IMG/VR virus record: IMGVR_UViG_3300034283_002790
Span: 123,385-187,384 of that record
From: a virus
DNA length: 64,000 nt
Reading direction: 5' to 3' (one strand)
Part shown: piece by piece, positions 4,765 through 9,056 of the stretch
How the letters are laid out: each line of letters starts with the position of its first letter
Position numbering within the stretch: position 1 is the stretch's first letter
Made by a program: the position numbers and the translations under genes
The notes under the pieces: generated by a model
What the model saw: the letters and a program-made list of their open reading frames with translations, nothing else
Database searches by the model: none
Told to the model about the DNA's origin: nothing

Positions 4765-5242
4765 AAAAAGTATTATATCTATTTTCTAAATCTATTTCTC
4801 TAACAAGAAGACCTGAGTTATCCTCAAACCATGTTTTAAATATTGGGATCCATTTATCACCAAATAATGTTGTCAGTTCATTTATAACCCCCCTACTTAT
4901 TGATAAGGTATGCAAATATTCATACCCATCCCATTCTCCAAGATATGAGTATGCTGGTGAATCATCAATTAGAAAATCATATATACCATATTGTTCTAAT
5001 TCTACTTTATAAAAATCGTAAATGTCGCTCCAACCATAATCCGGATAAAACTGTTCTGTAAGGTATTGATAAATAAAATAATTAATTTCTTCATCATTTA
5101 GATCTATTAAACTAATTAATCTACTGACCCCATTAACAGCAAGTGATGCTTTTTTAATACCTACAGTACCAATCAATTCCCTCAAATTATTCTTAAGTGA
5201 ATTTTCCCTTAATATTCTTTTGATGGATTCTTGTAGGTTCAT
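4763..5242 (-). CDS. Leader-array protein (MNLQESIKRILRE plus helical module)
   Basis: Shared leader; start overlaps the upstream stop (ATGA). Confidence 0.8.
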   Translation of the reverse strand: MNLQESIKRILRENSLKNNLRELIGTVGIKKASLAVNGVSRLISLIDLNDEEINYFIYQYLTEQFYPDYGWSDIYDFYKVELEQYGIYDFLIDDSPAYSYLGEWDGYEYLHTLSISRGVINELTTLFGDKWIPIFKTWFEDNSGLLVREIDLENRYNTF

Positions 5243-5724
5243 ATAAGTTCAATGCGTTCTATCTTTTCTTTTATTGGTTTAAATAATAATAAGTTTCTTA
5301 CCCCACCTTCATATATCCAAACACCATCATAATTACCTTCTAACCATTCCATTACATCGTCATTCGCTTCAATTGCCGACCAACTATCAGAGTTGTAATA
5401 CAATTGTTCAGGTTCTGTTATATAATAATCATCTTCATCTTCATCGTAATATGGGTCAATCAAAGTTCCAAACTCGTCAATTATTAATTCACAATCTTTC
5501 AATAGATTGGTATCAATTAAGTTCAAATTTCTTCTTAAAAAAACTCTATAAATGTATTCCCCATATGATTTTGCTTCATTTTCACTAATTGAAAAAAATG
5601 TCCCATTAAACATTAAACCTTCTTTGTTAAATTCGTGTTTTTCTGATGTCCCGTGATAAACGATTAAATCATTTTCATTTAGTTCCTCCCTTAATATTCT
5701 TCTTATGGATTCTTGTAGGTTCAT
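5239..5724 (-). CDS. Leader-array protein with an ADP-ribosyltransferase-like (ART-PolyVal-like) domain
   Basis: LIVYHGTS...GTFFS...EAKSYGEYIYRVFL pattern typical of ART-fold domains. Confidence 0.55.
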   Translation of the reverse strand: MNLQESIRRILREELNENDLIVYHGTSEKHEFNKEGLMFNGTFFSISENEAKSYGEYIYRVFLRRNLNLIDTNLLKDCELIIDEFGTLIDPYYDEDEDDYYITEPEQLYYNSDSWSAIEANDDVMEWLEGNYDGVWIYEGGVRNLLLFKPIKEKIERIELI

Positions 5725-5740
5725 TTCTTATAAATATCTA

Positions 5741-7219
5741 TTATAAATCACTGTCATTATCTGTATTGGTCACCTGTAAATCATACACGGAATTTAACCA
5801 TTCCTTTGTAAGTTCTTTTATTTCTTTGAGAGTAAGTTCGAATTCTTGTGCTAGGATTTTCCATATTTCCTCATAACTAATTCTACATTCACTTTTTATA
5901 TCGATCAAATAGTTATAATTTATTGTAAAATGTATGAATATAATGTTATCGGGATTATACCCATAACAAATCACATCAGGATCATCATCAAACTCCCAAC
6001 TTAATTCCGTTTCTGAAAGTGGAATAATTTTTAGATCGTCAAATAAGTGTAGGTAATCCATTGGTGAATTTATGTTTAATATTTTACATAAGTTTTTAAA
6101 TCCACCTACCGCTTTTGTAGTTAATTCAACCCCTATGGATTTGATCGAGCGTAATATCGTATCTCTAAGACTGGTGTCTTCAGTTTCTTCCCTCAATACT
6201 CTTTTTATGGATTCTTGAAGATCGTCCGTTGTGTATTTTCTATTCATTAACCAGTCATACCCACCGCAAGAATTAACATATGATCTTACAATTTCAGTAT
6301 TAAATGGTACAAACAATTTAATGGTTTTGAGCAAGTTATTCATTAAATCTAATTCTTTATAGAGTATTCTTTGAGTTCTTGGCCATACTTCTGAGTTTGG
6401 TCCACCAACAAAATAAACTTTAACCAAATATGGAATTTTATCTTTATTCGAATAATAATATTGGTCATCTCTTTCTTCAGGAGTTATTATATCAACCCCA
6501 CAAAAATGTTTGCAATCAGAAACGTCATAAGAATTAATTATACCTTTAATTAAATTTTTTTGTAAATTTGTATTTCCGGACAATTTTGACTCATTTATAT
6601 ATTTAATTTCTTCTCCACACTTCTTAACATAATAAGGGGCAAACACATAAACATTTAAACCCCAGGAACTAATTGTATTATCTATTAATGCTAATACATC
6701 ACTTAGACCAGAATCATGAAGTTGGTAGTATCTAATTGGTGAAGAAGATCTAATTTCGTAGTCACCATCTTCAGAATTATATTCAACCCACATGTCACAA
6801 ATGTTATTGTTAGTGGATTTGACTCTTTGAATTAAATCATTGATTAATTTGAGAAAGTAATCTTCTTTTTTTCCTTTTGATTCATTTAATGGACTCCATT
6901 CACAATTTGGTTTTGTGTAATAACCAACAAAAATATTTCGTATAGGTAGAAATACCTCTAATTGCATTTTAACCTCATCCCGCATTTCTTGAATATAACT
7001 TCTAATTCGGTATAAATTTAAAAACTTATCATGTAGTTCTTCTTGACTAAAAACTAAATAAATGTTGTAATCAGGATCTTCAACATCAAAAGAAACTCTT
7101 ATATCGCATATACAATCTTTTTTTTTGAAGTGTTCCAACATCCTTTCGATGACCTCAATAAAAATACCTGGTTCCATTTCCTCTTTTAATATTCTTCTTA
7201 TGGATTCTTGTAGGTTCAT
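5741..7219 (-). CDS. Leader-array multidomain protein (three related Cys-containing domains, an internal leader, a C-terminal domain)
   Basis: Domains separated by PLNESK and YINESK, then an internal DLQESIKRVLREE. Confidence 0.8.
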   Translation of the reverse strand: MNLQESIRRILKEEMEPGIFIEVIERMLEHFKKKDCICDIRVSFDVEDPDYNIYLVFSQEELHDKFLNLYRIRSYIQEMRDEVKMQLEVFLPIRNIFVGYYTKPNCEWSPLNESKGKKEDYFLKLINDLIQRVKSTNNNICDMWVEYNSEDGDYEIRSSSPIRYYQLHDSGLSDVLALIDNTISSWGLNVYVFAPYYVKKCGEEIKYINESKLSGNTNLQKNLIKGIINSYDVSDCKHFCGVDIITPEERDDQYYYSNKDKIPYLVKVYFVGGPNSEVWPRTQRILYKELDLMNNLLKTIKLFVPFNTEIVRSYVNSCGGYDWLMNRKYTTDDLQESIKRVLREETEDTSLRDTILRSIKSIGVELTTKAVGGFKNLCKILNINSPMDYLHLFDDLKIIPLSETELSWEFDDDPDVICYGYNPDNIIFIHFTINYNYLIDIKSECRISYEEIWKILAQEFELTLKEIKELTKEWLNSVYDLQVTNTDNDSDL

Positions 7220-7542
7220 TTTTTCATATTTTTATAATACATTTCAAGAACGGGATTATAAACTGATATCATATGTTTTACATACAAATCAATATCTTCT
7301 TTTGGAAGTTCTTCACTTATCTCAATATTATATTTATAATAAATATAGTTCTGTAAAGTTAATTCGATTAATTTATATTTGAATTCTTCCAGGGTGTTCG
7401 TGTCATAAAAAATGTATGGAATTCCTTTTATCATCATTGTTTCAAATTTATAATGATCAATTCTTCTGTTGAAAAAGGAAGGTAATTTCTTATTTTTGTT
7501 TTCTTCCATCAGAATTCTTCTTATGTTTTCTTGTAGGTTCAT
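7216..7542 (-). CDS. Leader-array protein
   Basis: MNLQENIRRILMEE; ATGA coupling to the next gene. Confidence 0.8.
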   Translation of the reverse strand: MNLQENIRRILMEENKNKKLPSFFNRRIDHYKFETMMIKGIPYIFYDTNTLEEFKYKLIELTLQNYIYYKYNIEISEELPKEDIDLYVKHMISVYNPVLEMYYKNMKK

Positions 7543-7547
7543 TATTT

Positions 7548-7892
7548 TTAAACTGAATAAATGTAATGTATATCCCCATCAAAAATTACAACATAACCAT
7601 CTTCCTCGGACTTATCGTAGAATTCCAACCATTCCTCACTTTCAGGATTGTTTATAATTTTATTTATTGATTTTGTTAAAGTAAATTTATCTTTGAATTC
7701 TTCTTCAGAGATTTCATAATTTTCCATATCATCAATAAATTGTGCAAACTCTGATGAGTCAATCTCACCAAAACAAGTATCGTAAAATATTCCATCTTCA
7801 TCAGCATCAGTACACTTAAATTCGTAATATAGATCTTGTTTAGGGTTTGACTCTTCCCTTAATATTTTTTTTATGTTTTCTTGTAGGTTCAT
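7548..7892 (-). CDS. Leader-array protein, acidic
   Basis: MNLQENIKKILREE. Confidence 0.8.
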   Translation of the reverse strand: MNLQENIKKILREESNPKQDLYYEFKCTDADEDGIFYDTCFGEIDSSEFAQFIDDMENYEISEEEFKDKFTLTKSINKIINNPESEEWLEFYDKSEEDGYVVIFDGDIHYIYSV

Positions 7893-8224
7893 TATTTCTT
7901 TAATACATTATACATTGATGATATCCTATCTTTATATTGTTCCATTAAACCATTAAGTATCTCACCATACCACTCAACATCATTAGGTAAATAACGTTTG
8001 AGTTCAATACCGTCCATAAAATCAATTATTACCATTCTTGTAAACTCATATTCCGATAACTTACGTGAGTTTGCTTTATAGTTTCTTAAAAACATTTTTG
8101 ATATAAAATCTAATGAGTCCTTAAACTCACTTTCTAATCTTTCTGGTGATACTCTACGTAATACCAATCTCATAAAATTAGTTTCTTCCTTTAATACTCT
8201 TCTTATGTTTTCTTGTAGGTTCAT
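7892..8224 (-). CDS. Leader-array protein
   Basis: MNLQENIRRVLKEE; TAATG coupling; payload resembles 7216..7542 (RR.....E..f......F...fi). Confidence 0.8.
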   Translation of the reverse strand: MNLQENIRRVLKEETNFMRLVLRRVSPERLESEFKDSLDFISKMFLRNYKANSRKLSEYEFTRMVIIDFMDGIELKRYLPNDVEWYGEILNGLMEQYKDRISSMYNVLKK

Positions 8225-8225
8225 A

Positions 8226-9056
8226 TTACCAACTTTTACCTGTTCCTTTATGTATTAATTTCAAACAATCAGGTGATATGTCTTCAAATGTTACAATATG
8301 ATGACTATAATCATCACTTTCAAAATGTGCGTCTATATACCAAGTAACCCCCGCACATTCCGTATCAATTAACCATGTATCATCATTGTAAGTTGAGTCA
8401 AACATATCTTCCTCATTTAATGAATCTGTGGCAAAAATCGCTGGTTGACATTCCGTATACCATTCACCATATAAACCCATTACGTGATTCTCATAACATT
8501 CCCCAACTGATACTTGTAATCCTGTTAGTCCAATATTCTTTCTCCATTGTGGGGGGGATTTATGAGCAACATATCTACCAGGTGTGTACTCATCACCTGC
8601 AGGTGAATAAGTTTCTTCCCTTAATATTCTTCTTATTGATTCTTGTAGGTTACGTAATTTAAGTTGGAATAATGTGGTATCTTCTTCCTTATAGTATTTT
8701 ACCGACTTTCCTATATTTGAAGGTAAATTACTTAATATGTATCTCCATGCTTTTTCAGCCTCAGGACTTCTAAATACTGAATTAATAATAATGTTTGGTC
8801 TTTCTTTGAATAAGTTTATAATCGTTTTTGGATATATTCTATTTCCTTTGTATTCATTATCAATTGTTGCATCCACAATTGTATATAGATTCGGTATGCT
8901 TTCCTTAACAAAAGATATTTCCCCAATCTTTTTATCACCATTCATAATGAATACATCAAACCCATCCTCATAATCTTTTATAACGGTATTCAAATCTTCC
9001 AGCGGAATAAAATCTTCTTCCCTTAATACTTTCTTTATGTGTTCTTGTAGGTTCAT
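8226..9056 (-). CDS. Leader-array two-domain protein: GNAT-like, internal leader, ART/Tpt1-like
   Basis: KKIGEISF...IDNEYKGNRIY...SPEAEKAW (GNAT-like); internal NLQESIRRILREE; YVAHKS...NIGLTGL...AIFAT...WLID...WYID...EDISPDCL (ART-fold-like). Confidence 0.6.
   Translation of the reverse strand: MNLQEHIKKVLREEDFIPLEDLNTVIKDYEDGFDVFIMNGDKKIGEISFVKESIPNLYTIVDATIDNEYKGNRIYPKTIINLFKERPNIIINSVFRSPEAEKAWRYILSNLPSNIGKSVKYYKEEDTTLFQLKLRNLQESIRRILREETYSPAGDEYTPGRYVAHKSPPQWRKNIGLTGLQVSVGECYENHVMGLYGEWYTECQPAIFATDSLNEEDMFDSTYNDDTWLIDTECAGVTWYIDAHFESDDYSHHIVTFEDISPDCLKLIHKGTGKSW

Follow-up and report, generated by a model that had tools for sequence, protein, structure and literature searches.

The DNA region analysed here (the window, 64,000 nt) belongs to a 187-kb record which is a fragment of a distant, uncultured giant phage of the T4 type. 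On its minus strand, a tight tandem array of eight genes with a common leader lies downstream of a SprT-like gene (10237-10701), which is without leader, and is followed by a nitroreductase gene (3999-4631), which also flanks the array in the relatives L003-L006. The leader comprises 42 nt (14 codons), and its peptide consensus is MNLQE[SNH]I[RK][RK][IV]L[RK]EE. It contains the 12-mer TTCTTGTAGGTT, which in the minus-strand reading is AAC CTA CAA GAA and encodes N L Q E, codons 2-5 of the leader. The first-pass annotation had described this 12-mer as identical in eight copies, one of them internal at approximately 8640-8651, and all eight exact matches were found (plus-strand positions 5228, 5710, 7205, 7528, 7878, 8210, 8640 and 9042), while shuffled sequences contained 0.77 on average and never eight. 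In seven of these copies an ATG immediately precedes the 12-mer, and each heads a tandem gene. The eighth (8613-8654) sits within the 276-aa ORF 8226-9056 and was counted as internal because CGT instead of ATG precedes the 12-mer. Together with three diverged copies nearby (6185-6226, 9722-9763, 11634-11675), 11 copies are present in 7 kb, all of them direct repeats on one strand and none inverted. The 14-aa leader is the N-terminus of eight genes. One more gene, 10.5 kb ahead of the window, begins with a ninth exact 12-mer. The features of the locus are the following:

3954..3978, minus strand: terminator-like hairpin after the nitroreductase gene 3999-4631, which ends the unit
4763..10159, minus strand: eight leader-bearing genes in a compact tandem array, in which the stop of one gene overlaps or nearly abuts the start of the next
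5201..5242, minus strand: leader copy MNLQESIKRILREN, start of gene 4763-5242
5683..5724, minus strand: leader copy MNLQESIRRILREE, start of gene 5239-5724 (payload with predicted ADP-ribosyltransferase (ART) fold)
6185..6226, minus strand: decayed internal leader DDLQESIKRVLREE between two domains of the 492-aa ORF 5741-7219
7178..7219, minus strand: leader copy, start of the 492-aa gene 5741-7219
7501..7542, minus strand: leader copy, start of gene 7216-7542
7851..7892, minus strand: leader copy, start of gene 7548-7892
8183..8224, minus strand: leader copy, start of gene 7892-8224
8613..8654, minus strand: internal leader copy with CGT for ATG, joining an IPLEDLNT domain in frame to a YSPAG payload in ORF 8226-9056
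9015..9056, minus strand: leader copy, start of gene 8226-9056
9722..9763, minus strand: decayed internal leader DTLKESIKKILREE within ORF 9062-10159
10187..10216, minus strand: terminator-like hairpin between the SprT-like gene and the array
10762..10869, minus strand: CWKGY..GKRYPNCVKK module, C-terminal in the DUF2237 fusion, a second mobile mini-module
11634..11675, minus strand: variant N-terminal leader MNLQSFIKKILKEE with AAT CTA, start of the DUF2237 fusion gene 10761-11675

The payloads behind the leaders have no pairwise similarity according to BLASTP (all E > 0.2), and whole-gene duplication therefore fails to explain the repeat. The payload family of the gene 7892-8224 has 33 metagenomic homologues. 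For the payload 5239-5724 an ART fold is predicted, with the H/Y..., GTFFS and E motif: it matches Pfam ART-PolyVal below the curated cut-off (E=6e-6), several of its homologues have PF18760 as precomputed annotation, and Y23, H24, G25, G41-S45 and E139 are invariant among the homologues. The Foldseek matches include 6kyf; the best one is an anti-CRISPR structure, and RES, MbcT, ExoA and PARPs are next. The homologues of this payload bear different leaders or none. Elsewhere the genome encodes a T4-type head module with portal (PF07230, 247.8 bits), S77 prohead protease (PF03420, 79.9 bits) and Gp23 capsid protein (PF07068, 248.9 bits) in the T4 gene order, and an acidic scaffold-like gene of 496 aa lies between protease and capsid. 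The leader DNA was found in no cultured phage, and the host is probably not enterobacterial.

The leader is conserved at the level of DNA. In the 232 ORFs of the genome AAC accounts for 25% of the Asn codons and CTA for 8% of the Leu codons, and the leader also uses TCC (9%), AGG (11%) and ATA (30%), while the bodies of the eight payload genes match the genome usage (AAC 27%, CTA 11%). With independent draws, the chance of finding AAC and CTA in eight copies would be (0.25 x 0.08)^8, or ~3e-14. In three other leader families of the same genome (A, B and D) the protein is conserved and the synonymous sites vary freely. Since the leader codons are rare, the payload codons are normal and the three other families are conserved as proteins only, the DNA-level conservation is real and specific to the 42-nt family, and because families A, B and D drift at synonymous sites, protein-level selection alone is insufficient for the DNA identity. 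Thus, the first-pass annotation was right that AAC and CTA are unexpected here and that protein selection alone would let synonymous sites drift.

The same bias is seen beyond this genome. In 70 distinct contexts, chosen by codons 7-14 only, AAC:AAT was 54:4, CTA:TTA was 46:20, and 41 of 44 Ser codons were TCC. One 42-nt sequence is dominant in many genomes. In ortholog pairs the synonymous-codon identity of the leaders was 0.76-0.83, while the payloads were saturated at ~0.60. Leaders within one genome had a synonymous identity of 0.820 compared to 0.783 overall, and none of 2000 permutations reached 0.820, although this homogenisation effect is small (0.82 vs 0.78). Moreover, ~20% of the synonymous leader comparisons differ, AAT and TTA at codons 2-3 included, and the 12-mer occurs among relatives in AAT, TTA, CAG and GAG forms, so that the earlier designation "invariant" applies to the eight copies in the window and not to the family. 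The rare codons are nevertheless retained in lineages with saturated payload orthologues. Neutral within-genome gene conversion alone cannot explain this; for the codons to persist, lineages must exchange DNA frequently or the nucleotides must be under some selection.

In relatives of 195-322 kb, the same leader is found on many unrelated payloads in differing order, standalone or fused. Payload blocks of 74-95% identity have a different order and neighbourhood, and these blocks stop at the leader. For example, an internal leader fuses the IPLEDLNT domain to three different downstream payloads (in this genome, L096 and L078), the YSPAG payload, which is fused in this genome, is a gene of its own with an ATG-leader in several relatives, and L059 and L214 carry the domain behind the decayed leader at 9722..9763 as a gene of its own, headed by a short leader. 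The comparison of the locus across relatives, as suggested in the first-pass annotation, thus revealed variation in cassette order, content and fusion state, with homology ending at the leader.

A breakpoint inside the leader was found at 7851..7892. When compared to L007, this region is 100% identical from position -60 through codon 7, followed by four differences in codons 8-14 and an unrelated payload beyond; the breakpoint is located after codon 7. Where a pair had only the upstream cassette in common (11 pairs), the mismatches per leader third were 10/20/20, and where it had only the downstream payload in common (seven pairs) they were 13/19/5 (Fisher p=0.016, Mann-Whitney p=0.008, with n=18 pairs which are not fully independent). 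This placement of the mismatches, 3' when the upstream cassette is shared and 5' when the payload is shared, puts the exchange points inside the leader and supports the view that its 5' third is inherited with the upstream cassette and its 3' third with the downstream payload. The exchange points are distributed across the leader, with no one position. In agreement with the earlier remark that no recombinase is visible, integrase or recombinase domains were not found among the neighbour genes of the array. A RecA/UvsX-type gene was not found in the 64%-complete record, and in complete relatives the single RecA-family match was weak. For such exchanges, 42 nt of homology are enough for general homologous recombination, as is known from T4-type phages. 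Based on these data, it is quite likely that the leader is an exchange point between cassettes.

At the protein level, the leader is probably a capsid-targeting or propeptide tag. In the AlphaFold model of the ART-fold payload it is a separate low-confidence helix (residues 3-18), followed by a confident globular domain. All four leader families of the genome have aliphatic-x-E-S near the N-terminus in common, the capsid protein starts with MGALLES, and leader-like N-termini are present on structural-module proteins, too. The motif [LI]xES occurs within the first 14 residues of 22 of the 232 ORFs, compared to 1.2% of internal windows. Every leader copy contains LQE and L[RK]E, three-residue motifs which are weak as evidence for a protease site, and E13 and E14 of the leader are invariant across 25 homologues. 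T4 gp24 starts with MAKINELLRES, and the end of the leader resembles the gp24 propeptide LLRE/S. With the T4 capsid-targeting sequence (CTS) MKTYQEFIAE, only QE.I is in common, and homology between leader and CTS is not demonstrable at the sequence level.

By analogy, the leader system can be regarded as a larger version of the T4 internal-protein arrangement. The internal proteins of T-even phages are diverse and the CTS alone is conserved (PMC3012670, PMC9026906, PMC12373910); T4 ipII and ipIII have 32 identical nt of CTS DNA on unrelated payloads. Like the gp21-cleaved CTS of IPI, IPII, IPIII and of the Alt and gp24 propeptides, the leader is a short N-terminal peptide on unrelated, non-essential, fast-evolving proteins and occurs with a T4-type portal, protease and capsid set; its aliphatic-x-Glu end may, as in the CTS, be a protease site with the cut after Glu. 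One cargo has a predicted ART fold, and Alt, which T4 packages, is also an ADP-ribosyltransferase (PMC9026906). On the other hand, the leader MNLQESIRRILREE differs in sequence and has 14 residues, the T4 CTS 10; a 7-kb stretch contains 11 copies and the genome three further leader families, compared to three IP genes in T4; the leader also occurs internally as an in-frame linker; and most payloads are acidic (pI 4.1-5.3) while T4 internal proteins are basic. An N-terminal propeptide with prohead-protease motifs is also conserved on the diverged head/ejection proteins gp53 and gp54 of the giant phage SPN3US, which have identical N-termini; DNA-level conservation or cassette exchange is not reported there (PMC5694885). 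Further, gp53 and gp54 are paralogues, while the payloads described here are unrelated.

In polymorphic toxin loci (CdiA-CT, Rhs), a conserved pre-toxin coding motif separates the constant delivery part, a large protein, from variable C-terminal toxins with immunity genes, and orphan cassettes exist. The DNA of the motif is the homology for in-frame swaps of payload cassettes, some of which are without own start. Here, the constant part is just a 14-residue tag and each cassette is normally an own gene. In hyperplastic regions of T4-type phages, genes are shuffled by recombination between short conserved motifs (PMC2839356, PMC4122927). These PeSLs (Arbiol et al. 2010, PMC2839356; Comeau et al. 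2014, PMC4122927) resemble the leader in that short conserved repeats flank T4-type accessory genes and provide homology for general recombination, by which single-gene cassettes are gained, lost or replaced between close relatives; recombination between repeats likewise explains insertions, deletions and replacements between the relatives studied here. However, a PeSL is an intergenic sigma-70-like promoter with a stem-loop terminator, while the leader is coding and unstructured and its exchanges are bound to the frame; it was absent among the predicted promoter-like and terminator-like sites and had no significant fold.

The first-pass annotation had viewed the repeat as a crossover point homogenised by recombination and functionally like an integron or shufflon. 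The breakpoints in the leader and the within-genome homogenisation agree with the former, but a site-specific system with a dedicated recombinase at the 42-nt repeat is extremely improbable. As in integrons, a recurring site lies between single-gene cassettes, and cassette content varies among relatives; however, no IntI-type integrase, resolvase or Rci-like domain was found among the neighbours, the repeat has no attC-like palindrome or foldable structure, the cassettes do not follow a promoterless logic, the exchange points are spread along the leader instead of being fixed at one position, and the repeat lies within coding sequence with the frame preserved. A shufflon requires inverted repeats, and because all 11 copies are direct, no inversion is possible. 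It is also rather improbable that the leader family is simply young, having been dispersed not long ago through domain shuffling and horizontal transfer, so that its synonymous sites had too little time to drift, and that it has no continuing role in crossover. Recent spread would suffice for the eight identical copies and for one 42-nt sequence being dominant across many genomes, but within payload families that bear the leader the orthologues have diverged to 20-55% amino-acid identity with saturated synonymous sites, the asymmetric mismatches point to repeated exchanges within it, and the decayed internal copies show that a copy drifts once it leaves the pool.

Selection at the mRNA level, with the leader as a shared translation-start or regulator-binding sequence in a Shine-Dalgarno-independent, Bacteroidota-type host and with incidental recombination, seems improbable as well. 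In line with it, the array genes are tightly packed and without Shine-Dalgarno sequence, the sequence upstream of the leaders is variable, the leader RNA is purine-rich and unstructured (fold z-scores -0.9 to +1.2), the window has an excess of Bacteroidota-type promoter motifs (11 vs 3.25 expected), and identical rare codons persist in diverged lineages. However, mid-ORF copies, which have no start codon, agree with the consensus codons to a similar degree as copies at gene starts (0.85 and 0.88, respectively), which weakens the translation signal that had been proposed as an alternative; no such constraint is seen in families A, B and D, although these lie in the same genome and on the same strand, about a fifth of the synonymous comparisons differ, and conserved RNA structure was not found in the leader. 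Somewhat less unlikely, though still doubtful, is that recombination at the leader is real but its peptide, rather than being a capsid-targeting propeptide, is a common helix that could bind a partner from phage or host, mediate oligomerisation or regulate the stability of early effectors in the cell. A short amphipathic helix could fill many roles, no homology to the T4 CTS is demonstrable, the payloads are acidic and not basic, and the coding strand has no T4-type late promoter TATAAATA ahead of the array. Against this speak the full T4-type core, protease and capsid module of the genome, the aliphatic-x-E-S common to four unrelated leader families and the capsid protein, the leader-like N-termini of structural-module proteins, the ART-fold cargo, which recalls Alt, and the fact that different phages put different leaders on the same payload.

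We slightly favour the view that the leader is both an exchange point and a capsid-targeting or propeptide tag. The 42-nt repeat would encode a detachable, T4-CTS-like N-terminal tag for cargo genes whose set changes fast. This tag would direct each cargo protein into the prohead core, where the S77 prohead protease would remove it at aliphatic-x-Glu (LQE/S and L[RK]E/E); packaging and cleavage are deduced from motifs of just 3-4 residues, and the cargo would presumably be injected. Internal leader copies could be cleavable linkers within fused cargoes. Since the same 42 nt are present on many adjacent genes and in co-infecting relatives, the leader DNA may offer ordinary homologous recombination a short stretch of homology. 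Within this stretch, crossovers and gene conversion would swap, fuse, split and reorder payloads in frame and hold the leader DNA, rare codons included, more uniform than protein selection would. The earlier reading thus seems to have missed the main reason for the repeat, a conserved detachable N-terminal peptide, which is probably a capsid-targeting propeptide. It is possible, though we consider it unlikely, that the leader nucleotides themselves are maintained as a portable in-frame recombination site, equivalent to PeSLs or attC but within coding sequence. In that case, one 42-nt element would be both a protein tag for head loading and a docking homology through which co-infecting phages of this clade could trade genes for head cargo (effectors), possibly via excised leader-bounded circles, and the persistence of the rare codons in lineages with saturated payloads would be explained. 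The CWKGY..GKRYPNCVKK module, for its part, is found directly before a leader in many relatives.

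The 12-mer TTCTTGTAGGTT is present in eight exact copies in the window, all of them on the plus strand (5228, 5710, 7205, 7528, 7878, 8210, 8640 and 9042). By chance 0.77 matches are expected on average, and eight were never reached in shuffled sequences. Read on the minus strand, every copy is AAC CTA CAA GAA and corresponds to codons 2-5 of a 14-codon leader with the consensus MNLQE[SNH]I[RK][RK][IV]L[RK]EE (leader C). Seven of the eight are preceded by ATG and head closely spaced tandem genes (4763-9056). The first-pass annotation had reported eight identical copies with an internal one at about 8640-8651, and the copy at 8640 indeed lies in the middle of an ORF. 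A protein-level scan revealed additional, diverged copies, and a ninth exact 12-mer was found at a gene start 10.5 kb ahead of the window. The leader copies are direct repeats throughout. The internal and diverged copies and the gene adjoining the array are:

8613-8654, minus strand: internal leader copy with CGT instead of ATG, in the middle of the ORF 8226-9056 (276 aa)
6185-6226: diverged leader copy, internal
9722-9763: diverged leader copy, internal
11634-11675: diverged leader copy, N-terminal, on a DUF2237 fusion protein
3999-4631, minus strand: nitroreductase gene

The nitroreductase gene also adjoins the leader array in relatives (L003-L006; L003 8217-8846) with 77% DNA identity, and is a conserved anchor next to the variable array. 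Pairwise BLASTP revealed no similarity between the payloads behind the leaders, a PHROGs search with the eight leader genes gave no match, and a protein search with the payload YSPAG (payloads are named by residues) gave no usable match.

The leader DNA is conserved more than the protein demands. In the 232 ORFs of the genome AAC accounts for 25% of Asn, CTA for 8% of Leu, TCC for 9% of Ser, AGG for 11% of Arg and ATA for 30% of Ile codons. These are exactly the codons of the leader, whereas the bodies of its eight genes match the genome usage. An internal control is provided by three other N-terminal leader families of the same genome, MKIIITESQ (A), KKVIRLTESDLxRIVKRVIKE (B, also written MKKVIRLTESDLxRIVKRVIKE) and RFKQLLES..G.VKPL (D), which are conserved as protein but drift freely at synonymous sites; thus, the behaviour of leader C is special. 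Codon shares and control families agree with the earlier claim that AAC and CTA are used against the genome preference, beyond protein-level selection. Families A, B and D head dozens of small minus-strand genes at 96-124 kb of the genome (window -27000 to 700; for example 343-690).

In relatives, 70 distinct contexts of leader plus payload, ascertained by codons 7-14 only, have AAC in 54 and AAT in 4 cases at codon 2, CTA in 46 and TTA in 20 cases at codon 3, and TCC in 41 of 44 cases at codon 6. The preference for rare codons is therefore family-wide, yet not absolute. For a comparison of leader identity we used 157 copies from 32 contig groups; payload relations were taken from masked pairwise scores, and single-linkage clustering was dropped because internal leaders chained unrelated proteins. 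In orthologous cassettes the synonymous-codon identity of the leaders is 0.76-0.83, and the payloads are saturated at about 0.60. Leaders on different payloads in one genome have a synonymous identity of 0.820 versus 0.783 overall, a value reached by none of 2000 label permutations. Homogenisation of leaders inside a genome is thus slight but significant. For the rare codons to persist across diverged lineages, either lineages must exchange leaders often or the nucleotides themselves must be under some selection.

Orthologues of every payload of our genome, with 67-95% DNA identity, sit in differing neighbourhoods across phages, and each block of homology starts at one leader and stops where the following leader ends. 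The order of the payloads YSPAG and TNFMR is inverted between our genome and the relative L007. At least six relatives have YSPAG as a standalone gene with an ATG-leader; in our genome it follows an internal leader as part of a fusion. The IPLEDLNT domain with its internal leader is followed by three different payloads (in our genome, L096 and L078), and the payload with a predicted ADP-ribosyltransferase (ART) fold has different upstream neighbours in our genome and L214. At the best-resolved junction (7892), our genome and L007 are 100% identical over the 60 nt upstream and up to leader codon 7; four differences follow in codons 8-14, and then unrelated payloads. We compared pairs of loci, each pair drawn from two genomes, that reach about 90% identity or more on one side of the leader but not on the other.

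Leader mismatches in the 5', middle and 3' thirds
Only the upstream cassette shared (11 pairs): 10, 20 and 20
Only the downstream payload shared (7 pairs): 13, 19 and 5

The two classes differ in their first versus last leader third (Fisher p=0.016; Mann-Whitney p=0.008; some pairs depend on one another). The leader's 5' part goes together with the cassette upstream and its 3' part with the payload, as crossovers within the leader predict. The first-pass annotation had proposed that the repeat is homogenised and serves as a crossover point. This is borne out by the variable order and content of cassettes, by blocks that end at the leader with breakpoints inside it, and by the higher identity within genomes. 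Exchange points within a coding tag show a way in which phages may trade genes in frame with no need of a dedicated recombinase. This mode of shuffling resembles the modular exchange mediated by promoter plus stem-loop modules (PeSL) in hyperplastic regions of T4-type phages (PMC2839356, PMC4122927), but here the repeat is coding and in frame.

The same annotation had likened the locus to an integron or shufflon. Such a site-specific system fails to account for it, since only direct repeats without a palindrome are present, no recombinase domain was found nearby and the exchange points are dispersed over the leader. Alternatively, the repeat could be an RNA-level signal for translation or processing. 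This explanation is weakened, since mid-ORF copies keep the consensus codons like start copies (0.85 vs 0.88), families A, B and D are free of synonymous constraint and the leader RNA is unstructured; for the last reason a structured RNA element was rejected. A sigma-70 or T4 late promoter at the repeat was also rejected. That the leader family is merely young is unlikely given the saturation of payload orthologues.

Instead of these alternatives, we favour a peptide tag exchanged by recombination, a protein-level reason for the repeat which the first-pass annotation had overlooked. AlphaFold models the 161-aa protein encoded at 5239-5724 (mean pLDDT 88) with a confident globular domain of predicted ART fold, preceded by a separate helix of low confidence at residues 3-18. 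Foldseek matches this domain best to 6kyf, an anti-CRISPR structure, and next to RES, MbcT, exotoxin A and PARPs. The Pfam ART-PolyVal match falls under the cut-off, and this family is precomputed on several homologues. Among homologues of the ART-fold payload, some have another leader in front (MKLQEHIRKVLKEE, MKSLKQILREE, MKYLKLFEEF) and some have none; thus, the tag is a generic, exchangeable module.

In T4, an N-terminal propeptide of 10-20 residues, the capsid targeting sequence (CTS), directs its carriers (the internal proteins, Alt and gp24) into the prohead core and is cut off after Glu by gp21. The T-even internal proteins are diverse with only the CTS conserved, and are injected to block restriction systems (PMC9026906, PMC3012670, PMC5694885, PMC12373910). 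T4 injects three of them, lately shown to be restriction inhibitors (PMC12373910). T4 ipII and ipIII share 32 identical nt of CTS DNA in front of unrelated payloads, and gp24 starts with MAKINELLRES. E13 and E14 of the leader are invariant in 25 homologues (e.g. window 5683-5688), and aliphatic-x-E-S is found near the N-terminus in all four leader families and in the capsid protein (MGALLES). Of 232 ORFs, 22 (a count inflated by paralogy) have the motif [LI]xES within their first 14 residues, versus 1.2% of internal windows. We infer that leader proteins are packaged and cleaved in the head. The leader system appears to be a larger-scale variant of the T4 system of CTS and internal proteins, built on the same logic. 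Neither the leader motif nor a relevant paper on capsid targeting in metagenomic phages was found in the literature searched.

Some related observations concern N-termini. Cleavage after E13 would give each cargo an N-terminal Glu. Several ART-fold homologues start with MK[YR][IL]KLFE[EN]F, closer in flavour than leader C to the T4 CTS (MKTYQEFIAE, MKTFKEFTS). A 337-aa gene beside the major capsid gene (G000:C1:40811-41824, minus strand; locus L213 4812-5825), without match in Pfam and PHROG searches, starts with MLNKIIKKILNEITSTSSS, similar to leader C and to the T4 gp24 propeptide MAKINELLRESTTT. Further structural-module genes have the leader-like starts MRNLNSIIKRVIKE and MMNARIRRAIRKVMLE.

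The IMG/VR virus record (187,384 bp, 30.7% GC, estimated 64% complete; the window is its final 64 kb) encodes a T4-type portal (PF07230), S77 prohead protease (PF03420) and Gp23 capsid protein (PF07068) in T4 order. The protease is about 40% identical to cyanomyovirus proteases, and an acidic, scaffold-like 496-aa gene sits between protease and capsid genes. The Bacteroidota-type promoter pattern TTTG-N18-20-TAnnTTTG is present 11 times in the window (3.25 expected; 11 reached in 0 of 100 shuffles), ten times on the minus strand, which bears most genes (e.g. 10722-10753). This enrichment suggests a Bacteroidota host. Leader C is common among uncultured phages of about 30% GC and 195-322 kb, including three complete genomes, with the copies of each genome gathered in one region; the hosts of this clade are probably Bacteroidota. 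A 15-mer scan of viral contigs gave many single chance matches, and only loci confirmed at the protein level were used. When the 42-nt leader was searched by BLASTN in 50,697 records of cultured phages, all matches were at chance level.

If the tag is a head-loading signal, a clade of large uncultured phages injects a big, fast-exchangeable set of proteins along with its DNA: one tag is found on at least 11 coding contexts in 7 kb of our genome and on many more in relatives, compared to the three internal proteins of T4. It would then offer a simple sequence rule by which metagenomes could be screened for effectors and counter-defence proteins that may be injected. One candidate is the ART-fold protein, for which an anti-CRISPR is the nearest relative of solved structure. 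The tag might also serve as a handle by which foreign proteins are packaged into non-model phages.

Upstream of many start codons (6-22 nt, coding strand) we found ATATTTAT, with 26 matches versus 16.8 expected (5730-5737, 10166-10173, 17243-17250, 19743-19750, 20127-20134 and others). It also precedes standalone leader genes of relatives (..ATATTTATTACAT-ATG) and could act as a promoter, or as a translation-start element, specific to the phage. Finally, the DUF2237 fusion protein is closed by a C-terminal module of about 35 aa, CWKGYxxKGMKTMFGKRYPNCVKK (10762-10869, minus strand), with 76-86% DNA identity to segments of big lysine-rich hypothetical proteins of cyanomyoviruses (Bellamy gp123, beside the terminase; P-TIM68; S-SSM7; S-CAM22). 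In many relatives it is placed immediately ahead of a leader, and L007 has it as a gene of its own (54 aa). It appears to be a second mobile mini-module besides the leader.
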